Part shown: positions 45,523 to 58,198 of the stretch, one piece after another | Layout: each line of letters starts with the position of its first letter | Numbering within the stretch: the first letter of the stretch is position 1 | Assembly (NCBI GenBank): GCA_000004695.1 | Contig: CM000152.2 | Coordinates: 4,032,001-4,096,000 of the forward strand | Length of the DNA stretch: 64,000 nucleotides | Source: Dictyostelium discoideum | Taxonomy: Eukaryota | Direction: 5' to 3' | Program-made: the position numbers and the translations under genes | The notes under the pieces: model-generated | Seen by the model: the letters and a program-made list of their open reading frames with translations, nothing else | What the model was told of the DNA's origin: nothing | Databases searched by the model: none

Positions 45523-46244
45523 TTTAATTTTAATTTTTTTTTTTTTTTTGGTTGTGATTAAAAAAAAAAAAAAAAAAAAAAAATGGTCAGTAAAAAAAAA
45601 AAAAAAAAAATGACCAGTAAAAAATTTCAAATAAAACCCAGAAATTAATTCAAATAATTGAATACTTTGTTAATTAAATTTTAATTTAAAAATAAAAAGT
45701 CTGATAATTAAAAAAAAAGAAATTTAAATAATAAAAAAAAAAAAAAAGTTTGGTAAATTTTTTTATAAAAATAAATACTAGTAATATAATATATTTATAT
45801 ATTATTTATTTAATCGAACGATCGTACCCCAAAAAAAAAAAAAAAAAAAAAAAAAAAATGAAAAAAAAAATAGTTTAAAATGGTGCCATTATAAAAATAA
45901 TTTTTACATATAATAATCAAACACATTCAATGAAATTTCCAATTTTTTTTAAAAATAAAAAAAATAAAAAAAAAAAAAAAAAAAAAAAATTAAAAAAACA
46001 AAATTTGTCATATTCCGGAACTATTAATATCTTTTATTTTTTTTTATTTTTTTTTCTGACTAACAATACCAGAACACATAAAGAATTAATGAATTCTTGA
46101 ATAAAAAAAAATGGTTTTTTTATAAAAGACTCATTTTAATTTTAATTTTTTTTTCATTCATTTTAAAATAATAAAAAACAAATATAAAAACAAATAAAAA
46201 AACAAATATAAAAATAAATATAAAAACAAATAAAAACAAATAAA

Positions 46245-46571
46245 ATGTCAAGTGTTTCAAGAAAAGTTTCAAATGTTGCAAAAGGTTATAAAACTAAAGA
46301 TGGTGCAGGTGTATCACTTTTACGTGTTATTGGTGGACCTATCCCATCAAAATCAGTTGATCCATTCTTAATGTTAGATGCATTTAAATCAGAGAATCCA
46401 AATGATTATATTGCAGGTTTCCCATCACATCCACATAGAGGTCAACAAACTTTAACCTATATGATAGATGGTATAATGGAGCACAAAGATAACAAAGGAA
46501 ATAAAGGATTACTAAAACCTGGTATGGTTCAAGTTATGAATGCTGCAAGAGGGTATGTTTTTAAATATTAT

Positions 46572-46610
<39 letters not shown>

Positions 46611-47227
46611 AATACTAATAATTCAAAATAATAATATATATATAAAGTATTATTCACTCAGAAATGCCAAAACAAGTTGAAGGTAAAATGTTTGGATTTC
46701 AATTTTGGTTAAATTTAGCAGCAGTCGATAAAATGTCAGATCCATGGTACAAAGATATTCCAGCAGAAGAGATTCCAGAAGTTATTACGAATGATAAAAA
46801 GGTTAGAGTTGTTGCAGGTCATTATGAAGGTGTTGAAGGTATTGTTAAAGGTTTACGTGTTAATCCAATCTTTTTAGATGTTACATTATCACCAAACACT
46901 AAATTCTCTGTAGATATACCAAATTTCGATCATAATTCATTTGTTTATGTTTTCGAAGGTGAAGGTAAATTCGGTCCAGAAGGATATGAAAAAGTTGTAG
47001 CTGATCAACATATTGGTGTTTTAGAGAATAAAGACAGAGTTACAATTAATGATAATGAAATTACACCAAATAAATTAGATGCAATCGCAGGTGAAAATGG
47101 TGTTAGATTCTTATTTTTATCAGCAAAACCATTACGTGAACCAATTGTCCAACATGGTCCATTCGTTATGAATACACAAAAAGAAATTCAACAGGCTTTT
47201 TTTGATTACCAAATGGGTAGATTTTAA
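46245..47227 (+). CDS. Pirin (bicupin, Fe-binding) homologue, 2 exons, 295 aa
   Basis: Exon 1 is 46245-46552 and exon 2 is 46648-47227. The donor is GTATGT at 46553 and the acceptor ataaag at 46646-47. The splice joins AARG|IIHSEMP. Cupin metal-ligand motifs are present: FPSHPHRGQQTLTYMIDG...H (N-cupin) and MPKQVEGKMFGFQFWLNL. The protein is collinear with human PIR (HPHRGFETVTYVL...GDVQWMTAGRGILHAEMP...LQLWVNL). Confidence 0.85.
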
Positions 47228-47564
47228 TTAATCACCTTTTTTATAAAAAAAAAAAATAATAATAAAGATTAAAAAAAAAAAAATTGTACTATAATTAATG
47301 TAAAGTGGTTATTAAATTAACCCCCCAATTAAACATTTATACTGTTGAATTAGAAAAAAAAATAATAAAATAAAATAAATAATAAAATCTTTTAAATTCA
47401 ATGAAATTAAAACATAAAAAGCAATAATATGATTGTTATATTATTGTATATATATATGGTTATTAAAAAAAAAAAGTTTTATTTTTATTTTAATATTGTT
47501 TTTTATGTTTAAAAAAAAAATGTTAAGTGAATCTTTTTTTGATCGATCGAGAAAAAAAAATTAA

Positions 47565-55362: not shown

Positions 55363-55716
55363 ATCACAAAGTGAGTAATCCAAACTCTGAAAAATAAAAT
55401 GAATATAAAAAAAAATAAAAAATTAAAGATAAAACCCCACAGGTCAAAAAAAAAAAAAAAGAAAATATTTAAATAAATATAAAAATTAAGGGTGGTTGGA
55501 TGTAAAAATTTCAGCATTAAAGTGGTGAAAAGTAATTTTGTGGGTTTGTCGCCTTTTTATTTTTTTATTTTATATGCGACTTAATAAAAATAAAAAATGA
55601 AATTTAAAATGATTTGTTTTTATTTTTTTTATTTTTTTTATTTTTTTTTTTTTTTTAATTTTTAATTTTTAATTTTTTATTTTTTTAATTTTTTTTTTTA
55701 TAATTAGCAATACCAG

Positions 55717-56069
55717 TTGGAGAACATGCGTTATTCATTGATGCAAAGAAAATACTTGGTCATATTCCAATTGATGATTTAATTGCTCAAACATTAGCTA
55801 TTGAAATTTATTTAGAAGGAGGTGTAAGAGGTGTTGAAATAGGTACCCTTTTAGCTGATAGAGATCCAATTACTCACGAAAATAGATATCCTCAATTAGA
55901 GTTTGTAAGACTAGCAATTCCAAGAAGATCATATACAAATAATCATATGAAAGCCGTAGCTGTAACACTTAAAAATGTATATGATAAAAGATTTGAAATT
56001 AAAAGTGGTTATAAAATTATTCATGAAGCACCAATTCTAAGACATTTTATGTTGAATTAGAAAAGTTAT
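55717..56069 (+). pseudogene. Shorter relic of the same tryptophanase-like gene (array unit 4), fused directly to the conserved pirin-upstream block
   Basis: The junction reads TAATTAGCAATACCAG|TTGGAGAACATGCG. The fragment encodes PVGEHALFIDAKKILGHIPIDDLIAQTLAIEIYLEGGVRGVEIGTLLADRDPITHENRYPQLEFVRLAIPRRSYTNNHMKAVAVTLKNVYDKRFEIKSGYKIIHEAPILRHF. It has no start codon and no pirin. Confidence 0.55.
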
Positions 56070-56224
56070 AACTAATAATAAAATAAAATAAAAAACAAAA
56101 GAAAATAAAATTAAACTAAATCAATGAAATTAAAATATGAATAAGATTGTTTTTTATTTTATTTTAATATTAATTAATTTGAGAATCTTTTTTTTTTTTT
56201 CAATTTAAAAAAAAAAAAAATTAA

Positions 56225-56974
56225 TTAAAATGGTAAGTTTCCAAGAACTTTTGGTAATTGGACTGATGATTTTAATTTTAATTGTTTAGAATTTGGTGGA
56301 TTTAAACAAATACTTGGTAATTGGAAGTATGCTGAATCAGCAGATGGGTTGTAATAGTAATAGTTTGTTAATGAATATCCACTTGGTGTGTTGTTAATAT
56401 TTTCAGTTGAAGCAGAGATTAATGAACAATCTGATTTATCTACAAGGAGGACAAGATTTGTAGAGTTAGCTAAACTACTTGGACTACCTGCAAACATATC
56501 ACATTGAACAGTACCTAATTCGAAATCAGTAATATAGTTTAATCCTTCGATTGCTGGAACTGAGTATGATAATGGTTGTTGGAAACAATAATCAGTACCA
56601 TTTACATTAACACTAACGTATTGTGTACTATTACTACCGAAACCCCAGAGATTACCTTTTGTTTTTGTATTACCATTATCGAATAAAAAGTCAACATACA
56701 ATTGTTGACCAACCAAATCGATATTCATAAAACCAGATTCAAGGAAAGATGATTGTTGAATACCACTTGGAGTTGGATGGTTTCCATTAAAACTTATCAT
56801 AACATAAGAACTTGAATAACCTGTTGGGAGTTGGCCACTTGAAGTAAAACATTGTTGTTGACCTACTTGATTTTCAATTTTTGAGTAATCAATTTTATTT
56901 GTACCCATATTAAATGATTTACAACAATTTAATGCAATTGTCATTACTAAAATTAAAGAAAATAATAATTTCAT
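56225..56974 (-). CDS. Secreted Cys-containing protein, array copy D (249 aa), the most divergent copy
   Basis: The ORF is intact and the signal peptide conserved. There are about 30 amino-acid substitutions clustered around positions 140-200. Confidence 0.6.
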   Translation of the reverse strand: MKLLFSLILVMTIALNCCKSFNMGTNKIDYSKIENQVGQQQCFTSSGQLPTGYSSSYVMISFNGNHPTPSGIQQSSFLESGFMNIDLVGQQLYVDFLFDNGNTKTKGNLWGFGSNSTQYVSVNVNGTDYCFQQPLSYSVPAIEGLNYITDFELGTVQCDMFAGSPSSLANSTNLVLLVDKSDCSLISASTENINNTPSGYSLTNYYYYNPSADSAYFQLPSICLNPPNSKQLKLKSSVQLPKVLGNLPF

Positions 56975-58198
56975 TTTTTTTTTATTTTTTTTTTTTTATT
57001 TATTTATTTATTTATTTATTTATTTGTTTATTTATTTTTATTTAAACACTGAAATTATTTGCTTAAAATATATTATATTTGTTTATTAATGAGATTAAAA
57101 AAAAAAAAAAAAAAAACCTTTTTATACTTAATTTATAAAAAAAAGAGGATTCACTTAAAAAAATGATATTTTAAAAAAAAAAATTTGTTATGGTTATTAT
57201 TTTTTTTTTTTACCTGGTGATGATGTCAAACGAACTTGTCATAAATGATTTATTTGAATCGGTGCATTCTGTAATTATAATATTAAAAAAAAATTAATAG
57301 GATTTTTGATTGATTTTTTGCGATAGGGTCAAAAAAAAATTTTCAATTTAAAAAAAATAAAAAAAAAAAATTTTATCGTAAAAAATCAAAAAAAATATCC
57401 AAAAAAATATCCTAATATCCTAAAATTAAAAAATGCCAGGCCATTACCCCATAAAAAAAAAATAAAATAAAAAATACCTCTTATCTTACTTGTCCCTGGT
57501 AATACTAAAATAATATTTATAATATATGATATTCATTTAATAATTGGTTATATATTCTTTATATTAAATGAAAATAATTAAATTATTTGAATGATTAGAT
57601 TAAAATTTAAAAATAATCAAGTATGGATTAATAAATTTTTTTTTTTTTACCCATGTTATCACACCTTCAAGGAATTTCTTTGTGTAATCTTGTCTGTATT
57701 AGGTAAATTTATATTATTTAGTTAGATTTTAAATTGGTTCTTTTAAAAATTTTTTTTTTTTTATATTGATCAGTTTTTTTTCATTAAAAATTTAAATTAA
57801 AAAAATTTTAATTAAATTCTTCTTTTTTTAATTTAAATTATTTAATAAATAATTTTTATTATTAAAATTATAATTATCCCGTTTTATTATGTTGTTTAAT
57901 GGAAGTTTTTTAGTAATAGTTAATCATGGTATATAAAACTAAGTAAACTAAAATCAAAAAAAAATTAATGGAAGTTTTTTTTTAAAAATAAAAATTGATT
58001 GGTTAGACTGTCTAACCAATAAAAACTGGAAATTTCGACTTTTTTAAACTTCAATTTCTATCCAATTAGACCTTTCCAATCGCGAATTTATTATGGACGA
58101 TGTTAATTATGGAAGATTTTGTAATTACAATTATTTTTTAAAATAGTAGACCAAAAGGGAATCGAACATGTGACCATATATAAAAAGGTACAAAATAT

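Follow-up and report, generated by a model that had tools for sequence, protein, structure and literature searches.

Tandem array of pirin, tryptophanase and ependymin-like genes in Dictyostelium discoideum: four intact ependymin-like copies among decayed neighbors

Chromosome 3 of Dictyostelium discoideum AX4 carries a tandem array of four units, each derived from the same three-gene segment of pirin, tryptophanase and, on the opposite strand, an ependymin-like gene encoding a predicted secreted protein. The array lies within the 64,000-nucleotide stretch analyzed here (GenBank assembly GCA_000004695.1, contig CM000152.2, positions 4,032,001 to 4,096,000 of the forward strand), which we refer to as the window, and coordinates are those of the window unless otherwise stated. 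On the evidence presented below, the array is very probably young and unstable in structure, and it changes through duplication, loss and gene conversion. What this has left is four intact ependymin-like copies, each with its own conserved upstream blocks, standing beside pirin and tryptophanase sequences of which a single pirin gene is still intact.

Results

The array consists of four collinear three-gene units

Self-BLASTN and a repeat search resolved four collinear units arranged head to tail, at approximately 46028-48847, 49201-51457, 51779-55209, and 55659-57260, bearing out the four-unit array that an earlier note had described from the sequence alone. That note paired a pirin gene with a secreted-protein gene in each unit and overlooked tryptophanase, which is represented by fragments at 53059-53754 and 55712-56071 and by vestiges at 47302-47357 and 50060-50117. 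Because tryptophanase remnants occur in all four units, the duplicated unit is one of three genes, with pirin and tryptophanase on one strand facing the ependymin-like gene on the other. The pairing had also been described as divergent, and this applies only between each ependymin-like gene and the pirin of the next unit; within units the genes are convergent, with 337 bp between their stop codons.

The G+C content of the window is ~20-25% throughout, and the array region is both repetitive and ~78% A+T, the kind of sequence in which repeat copies of a reference could have been collapsed or expanded during assembly. However, the breakpoints and spacers are unique to each unit, and the whole array, including its collinearity, is reproduced in the independent assembly GCA_054883475.1, which matches positions 43876-64000 with 99.886% identity and 3 mismatches over 20,125 bp (the compared assemblies are de novo assemblies of Nanopore plus Illumina reads; PMC12745789). 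Mis-assembly is therefore excluded, an artifact being extremely improbable, and the units can be treated as separate, real copies, as the earlier note had argued from their distinct breakpoints.

All four ependymin-like genes remain open

The ependymin-like genes of the four units are as follows.

47565-48314, minus strand: unit 1 ependymin-like gene DDB_G0281117; open reading frame of 249 amino acids, exact match to EAL66855
50329-51078, minus strand: unit 2 ependymin-like gene DDB_G0281121; open reading frame, exact match to EAL66857
53896-54645, minus strand: unit 3 ependymin-like gene DDB_G0281131; open reading frame, exact match to EAL66862
56225-56974, minus strand: unit 4 ependymin-like gene DDB_G0281135, the copy at the ancestral position; open reading frame, exact match to EAL66864

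Each of the four reading frames is open over 750 bp and encodes 249 amino acids. The proteins of units 1-3 are mutually 97.6-98% identical and that of unit 4 is 90% identical, so that the earlier description of four open copies, the first three nearly identical, was accurate. When other genomes were included, 11 of 11 ependymin-like copies examined in five genomes were open and exactly 750 bp long.

The protein matches PF25544 (Ependymin_amoebozoa) over the entire profile (positions 1-171 of 171; E=2.8e-59; 200.3 bits against a cutoff of 27), and this domain was present in all of the homologues found. At word-match sensitivity, relatives of the protein were confined to group 4 Dictyostelium species. 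Four cysteines (C42, C130, C183, and C223) are invariant in 24 of 24 ependymin-like sequences and are predicted to form disulfides. By eye, the N-terminus, MKLLLSLILVMTVALNCCKS, opens with a charged stretch, followed by a hydrophobic core of 13 residues and a small polar end; this is typical of a signal peptide, and the protein is accordingly predicted to be secreted. A structure model, albeit one of low confidence (mean predicted local distance difference test score [pLDDT] 55.5; 75-81 in the core), was compared to the PDB with Foldseek, and the matches included VioE (2e-6), the sponge protein EPD-BCP1 (8i34; 8e-6, TM 0.63), and mouse EPDR1 (6jla; 4.1e-5, TM 0.61), with a weaker match to LprG (2.2e-2). 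The model thus suggests the curved antiparallel beta-sheet of the LolA-like/ependymin fold.

Pirin is intact in unit 1 and broken by independent events elsewhere

In contrast with the ependymin-like genes, only one of the four units retains an uninterrupted pirin frame with its metal ligands. The pirin sequences are as follows.

46245-47227, plus strand: unit 1 pirin, intact; exon 1 at 46245-46552, intron at 46553-46647, exon 2 at 46648-47227 including the stop codon
49406-49981, plus strand: unit 2 pirin pseudogene; TAA at codon 9 and a 407-bp deletion
51976-52614, plus strand: unit 3 pirin pseudogene; three small deletions that shift the frame, plus one of 343 bp joined at 52478/52479

Splicing of the 95-nt GT..AG intron from unit 1 pirin yields a 295-amino-acid product that exactly matches EAL66854/Q54UE9, annotated as 'pirin family protein'. 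As expected for a pirin bicupin, it contains both cupin domains (PF02678, 6.6e-32; PF05726, 2.1e-22) as well as H62, H64, H106, and E108, which we take to be the metal-ligand positions based on what is known of human pirin. Homologues of this pirin were found in Amoebozoa and bacteria at ~50% identity. A literature search on pirin yielded nothing relevant.

In unit 2, codon 9 has changed from TCA to TAA (49430-49432), and a 407-bp deletion equivalent to unit 1 positions 46553-46959, with 3 bp of microhomology (AGG), has its junction at 49711-49713. The deletion joins ...AARG to EGKFGPEGYEK, the fusion that had been claimed in the earlier note, and removes H106 and E108. It begins at the first base of the intron, and an origin through splicing was considered; since the right junction lies one base off any AG acceptor, this was rejected, and the loss is read as a microhomology deletion.

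The changes specific to unit 2 pirin (49406-49981) were also of an unusual kind, being mostly silent third-position substitutions from A/T to G/C (AGT>AGC, GGT>GGC, AGA>AGG, and TTA>CTC). Such changes are not what would be expected of a copy that decays in an A+T-rich genome and could derive from conversion by another paralogue.

Unit 3 pirin has accumulated frameshifting deletions of 1, 1, and 2 nt, the 343-bp deletion, and 26 substitutions. In unit 4 the pirin coding sequence is absent, and of the pirin promoter block only its initial 13 bases, TTAGCAATACCAG, remain at 55704-55716. The state of pirin in each of the four units is therefore the one that had been described previously, but the interpretation of these states as a stepwise decay did not hold: the lesions are independent single events that form no ordered series. 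Moreover, unit 4, which had been placed at the end of that series, is the copy at the ancestral position, and its pirin was lost in one deletion of ~2.8 kb.

The tryptophanase remnants are C-terminal fragments of a bacterial-type gene

The third gene of the unit is represented by four remnants. Two of these are defined with the help of the single-unit locus of D. cf. discoideum (L001) and the array of a wild D. discoideum strain (L004; GCA_054859385.1).

47302-47357, plus strand: unit 1 tryptophanase 3'-end vestige of ~55 nt (...TACTGTTGAATTAGAAAA); aligns to L001 10548-10606 and L004 18243-18300
50060-50117, plus strand: unit 2 tryptophanase 3'-end vestige; L001 10552-11600 aligns to window 50060-51132
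53059-53754, plus strand: unit 3 tryptophanase-like pseudogene; residues ~227-457 of 460 by tblastn, in-frame TGA at 53566-53568
55712-56071, plus strand: unit 4 tryptophanase-like pseudogene; residues ~339-457 by tblastn, 1-nt deletion near the end

Units 1 and 2 share a single tryptophanase deletion of ~1.56 kb that left ~55 nt of the 3' coding end, indicating that this deletion predates their separation. In unit 3 the 5' deletion could be defined against L004 17088-17618, and the remaining fragment retains the pyridoxal phosphate-lysine motif SGKKD. Within it, the reading frame at 53131-53568 (145 amino acids) matches PF01212 (Beta_elim_lyase) at 6.2e-11. In unit 4 the ~2.8-kb deletion joins the pirin promoter block directly to tryptophanase codon 339 through 5 bp of microhomology (ACCAG). 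A full-length open tryptophanase (~460 amino acids) is not present in the window, where AX4 retains only C-terminal fragments, each with a stop or a frameshift.

Taken with its flanks, the fragment in unit 3 shares 60-66% identity with bacterial tryptophanases (TnaA, PF01212), and its named bacterial relatives are mostly Bacteroidota; across the Dictyostelium sequences compared, identity to the bacterial enzymes is 60-67%. Judging from position and the order of identifiers, the unit 3 fragment probably corresponds to DDB_G0281127, which was listed as a 'Beta_elim_lyase' candidate for bacterial transfer by Sucgang et al. 2011 (PMC3188802). A donor scan of bacterial genomes, chosen by exact 8-mers, returned matches of 44-46% identity from mixed phyla and was uninformative. 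The adjacency of pirin and tryptophanase in two species raised the idea that both were transferred jointly from one bacterium, and this was found to be unsupported; pirin relatives in D. purpureum, Heterostelium, and Planoprotostelium are as close as the bacterial ones (49-55%).

Copy number varies between strains and species

The copy number of the array differs among the genomes compared: D. citrinum has 0+1, with the ependymin-like gene as the sole representative, and the number of units is 1 in the cryptic sister species, 3 in wild strain L004, at least 3 in wild strain L003, and 4 in AX4/AX2. At the syntenic locus of D. citrinum, the ependymin-like gene stands alone, 400 bp from the neighboring gene, with no trace of pirin or tryptophanase at that locus. 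Conversely, D. dimigraforme (L021 7997-10956, GCA_054859025.1) has an intact single-exon tryptophanase of 460 amino acids directly upstream of pirin, in a gene order reversed relative to the D. discoideum clade, and no ependymin-like gene within 10 kb of the pair. The D. dimigraforme pirin is 95% identical to the window pirin; for the tryptophanase of this species, identity is 85.6% with the protein of the D. discoideum clade and 66.8% with a bacterial tryptophanase. Among the genomes compared, this was the only intact 460-amino-acid tryptophanase.

In the one unit of D. cf. discoideum, tryptophanase is internally deleted and pirin, the sole copy at the locus, has a 14-nt frameshifting deletion in exon 2 (about 8400-8410 of L001), so that both neighbors are dead and the ependymin-like gene is intact. 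The last of the three units of L004 contains an open tryptophanase reading frame of 401 amino acids (17108-18313) that lacks ~56 N-terminal residues; this frame is 63% identical to bacterial tryptophanases over its full length. The units of strain L003 carry fuller pirin copies.

Three more pirin/ependymin-like loci (L002, L007, and L008) with homologous spacers were found on AX2/AX4 chromosome 3, ~0.4-1.0 Mb from the array, bringing the number of ependymin-like copies of at least 90% identity on this chromosome to nine. One segment, in L002, matches window positions 46898-49713 with 95.7% identity over 2.8 kb, and its breakpoints fall inside two pirin genes. These loci include intact pirins whose proteins are 97-98% identical to that of the window, and the extra pirins of the array are therefore redundant with copies elsewhere as well. 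The earlier proposal that the co-duplicated pirin copies are free to decay thus needs to be widened, redundancy inside the array being an insufficient explanation by itself given these intact copies and the frameshift in the only local pirin of D. cf. discoideum.

Gene bodies are more similar than the spacers between them

The spacers and upstream sequences, none of which is assigned a strand, are as follows (K, nucleotide divergence).

48315-49405: spacer 1, the shared upstream region that separates the ependymin-like gene of unit 1 from the pirin of unit 2; conserved blocks at 48525-48570 and 49251-49283
51079-51975: spacer 2; conserved blocks at 51269-51314 and 51831-51863; K=0.20 from spacer 1
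54646-55716: spacer 3; ependymin-like blocks at 54898-54941; ends in the truncated pirin promoter block TTAGCAATACCAG at 55704-55716
57213-57258: ependymin-like promoter blocks of unit 4, lying in the ancestral flank; flank collinear with the single-copy flank of L001 and L004

Conserved blocks shared by the units had been noted previously upstream of both genes. Two of these, CCTGGTNATGATGTNA and TGATTTATTTGAA, indeed occur four times each, once per unit, compared to 0.02 and 0.10 occurrences expected, respectively. The full pirin block was less uniform: units 2 and 3 match it, whereas unit 1 has a variant and in unit 4 the block is cut. The upstream blocks recur 5' of the same genes in other strains and at the paralogous loci. 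In addition, the ependymin-like promoter blocks (48525-48540, 48790-48806, and their equivalents in each unit) carry a repeated GGNNNTGAT(G/A)TCA motif, which presumably resembles a CRE/bZIP half-palindrome.

The inter-unit spacers of AX4 differ from one another by K=0.20-0.25. By comparison, spacer 1 differs from the corresponding spacers of two wild strains by K=0.083-0.107, which equals the silent divergence of the flanking gene between strains (dS=0.082-0.100; 0.082-0.110 for the strain baseline from the adjacent single-copy gene) and indicates that these spacers are orthologous. The array is therefore older than the strain split, because spacer 1 is orthologous across strains and yet at K=0.20-0.25 from the other spacers of AX4. 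The coding sequences behave in the opposite manner. Among units 1-3 the ependymin-like genes differ at 13-15 of 750 nucleotides, with a dS of 0.05-0.06 that is below the between-strain baseline, whereas their dS to positional orthologues is 0.13-0.16. Similarity between units falls right at the ATG, and mosaic ependymin-like coding sequences were found in one L004 copy and in the L002 paralogue. For units 1 and 2, pirin exon 1, the 3' part of pirin, and the 3' intergenic region are also close (K=0.016-0.047). The unit 4 ependymin-like gene is at dS=0.118, about the strain baseline, from the terminal copy of L004 and the single copy of L001, and is orthologous to the terminal or single copy of other strains. 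Considering these distances together, the simplest reading is conversion of gene bodies across old spacers. Of the two forces that had been suggested to maintain the secreted gene, selection or gene conversion, conversion is supported by the gap between coding sequences (dS=0.05-0.06) and spacers (K=0.20-0.25).

Disabling damage spares the ependymin-like genes

No disabling damage was found in any of the 11 ependymin-like copies, compared to at least 11 events in the pirin and tryptophanase sequence of AX4. This confirms the central observation of the earlier note, that the secreted gene is kept while its co-duplicated neighbors decay. It is nonetheless conceivable that the ependymin-like genes are neutral young duplicates, with reading frames that are open only through recent duplication or conversion and short length, and with no selection on copy number. 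The few differences among units 1-3 (13-15 of 750 nt) are in keeping with such an explanation, and conversion by itself can erase lesions. However, the 3,000 nt of ependymin-like coding sequence in AX4 contain no lesions, while the pirin and tryptophanase coding sequence still present in the same units (~2,170 nt) contains 6 small lesions and 5 large deletions, and by our own arithmetic, the chance that all 6 small lesions would miss the ependymin-like genes is ~0.005 if lesions fall in proportion to length. Furthermore, the open copies in five genomes include unit 4 and its orthologues, which are separated by a dS of ~0.12. On balance, we consider the neutral explanation improbable.

Substitution patterns are less informative on this point. 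Units 1-3 of the ependymin-like genes differ by 13 synonymous and 8 replacement changes, a significant excess of the former given that 21% of sites are synonymous (binomial p=5e-5), and the ratio of replacement to silent divergence (dN/dS) is 0.14-0.17 among these units and 0.40-0.47 between unit 4 and the others. The ratio is equally low in the dead remnants, at 0.09-0.34 (0.18 for pirin unit 2 vs 3; 0.34 for tryptophanase unit 3 vs 4), which is also compatible with the neutral explanation. The ratio therefore reflects past constraint or conversion from live copies and cannot demonstrate present constraint on each copy, so we did not accept it as evidence that the ependymin-like genes are under selection. 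The dosage selection that had been proposed for this array is thus not demonstrated, and one feature of unit 4 fits diversification as well.

This feature is a patch of replacements. Between unit 4 and units 1-3 there are 24-28 replacements, ~20 of which fall within codons 138-188, where, by our own count, replacement and silent rates are roughly equal. It is possible, if rather unlikely, that the copies are kept for functional differences and not for dosage, for instance through a variable surface patch involved in interactions with bacteria. The higher dN/dS of unit 4 would be consistent with this, as would the recurrence of the same two patch types across strains and in the sister species and the reported presence of unit 4 gene DDB_G0281135 among the transcripts most strongly induced upon Mycobacterium marinum infection. 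On the other hand, the proteins of units 1-3 are nearly the same (5-6 differences) and are being homogenized, which fits dosage, and the patch lies partly in a low-confidence region of the structure model.

The two sequence types of this patch recur across units as well as across strains and in the sister species, and one L004 copy is a mosaic of the two types.

Other features of the window

Two tRNA genes were found in the window, both outside the array, and Rfam detected no RNA genes within it. One is a tRNA-Ala(AGC) gene at 35961-36033 on the plus strand. The other, at 58199-58294 on the minus strand, is a 96-nt Rfam match (49 bits) with no ARAGORN match; since Rfam finds the gene and ARAGORN does not, it probably contains an intron.

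Discussion

The most probable history of this array, as a young and unstable one shaped by duplication, loss and conversion, can be outlined as follows. Originally, an ependymin-like gene would have stood alone at the locus, the state still seen in D. citrinum. A linked pair of pirin and tryptophanase would then have come to lie beside it in the D. discoideum clade, forming the three-gene segment, which unequal recombination may subsequently have duplicated head to tail. The extra pirin and tryptophanase copies were deleted or broken by a few discrete events, i.e., deletions at 3-5 bp microhomologies, slippage deletions of 1-2 nt, and nonsense substitutions; the large deletions measure 343-407 bp, ~1.56 kb, and ~2.8 kb. 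Gene conversion, in turn, would keep the gene bodies of units 1-3 ~98% alike despite spacer divergence of 20-25%. We infer that natural selection favors keeping several ependymin-like copies, whose product presumably binds a hydrophobic ligand, either extracellularly or within the endolysosomal system.

Several points weigh against this account or parts of it. The low dN/dS of the dead remnants has been mentioned above. Spacers that are 85-90% A+T align uncertainly, which may inflate K, although the comparison of orthologous spacers speaks against a large bias. In D. cf. discoideum, the single unit could have arisen by secondary collapse instead of preserving the ancestral state, so that events may have followed a different order. 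With regard to function, the structure model is of low confidence, a PDB sequence-profile search with the ependymin-like protein returned a chance hit only and nothing relevant, and among the four ependymin-like genes, expression evidence was found for the unit 4 copy only.

Each component of the array belongs to a system of a known kind. The ependymin-like protein shares with ependymin-related proteins (EPDR; PF00811, PF25544) the PF25544 match, the signal-peptide-like N-terminus, and the four invariant cysteines, and its model resembles sponge EPD-BCP1 and mouse EPDR1. EPDRs in dictyostelids, along with lineage-specific expansions of the family, have already been published (PMC6280359), and the LolA-like fold, common to bacterial lipoprotein carriers, has been described for EPDR1 (PMC6363788). 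The protein is only 12-14% identical to the solved EPDRs, none of which was recovered in the PDB sequence-profile search, and its relatives have the narrow distribution noted above. Pirin in unit 1 is a bicupin, its counterparts in units 2 and 3 being pseudogenes.

At the level of the array, the closest parallel is the dynamic tgr locus of Dictyostelium, a multigene family with duplication, loss, and concerted evolution (PMC12745789). The ependymin-like array resembles it in its strain-variable copy number, in the gene fragments that lie beside intact copies, and in its mosaic coding sequences. Concerted evolution of the same type is evident in that ependymin-like paralogues within a genome are closer than orthologues between genomes, with the spacers showing the opposite. 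It differs from the tgr locus in being much smaller and in that each unit combines three unrelated genes with opposite fates; no sign of hypermutation was noticed in it, although no search was aimed at one. Taken as a whole, the array illustrates gene-family turnover clearly but in an ordinary form, and nothing in it amounts to a new kind of biology.

A more far-reaching interpretation is that tryptophanase has been caught in the process of being lost, hitch-hiking in an array whose copy number varies through selection, perhaps by prey or pathogens, for more or more varied copies of the infection-induced ependymin-like gene. This view draws on the finding that D. dimigraforme has an intact tryptophanase, that the frame in L004 is open but has lost its N-terminus, and that different relics occur elsewhere. 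We regard it as quite unlikely.

The value of the array under the favored account, that of an unstable tandem array turning over by duplication, loss and conversion, lies in providing a compact, well-controlled case in a genetically tractable model, in which three unrelated genes were co-duplicated and then met opposite fates, and in which conversion tracts can be read against diverged spacers. Its most useful by-products concern what has become of a tryptophanase listed as a transfer candidate and how copy number varies in a secreted family induced by infection. With respect to the first, a caution for the literature is warranted, as DDB_G0281127, cited as a bacterial transfer, appears to be a truncated pseudogene in AX4. 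With respect to the second, the results draw attention to an expanded, copy-number-variable family of secreted proteins with a predicted LolA-like fold, one member of which has been reported to be strongly induced by mycobacterial infection.

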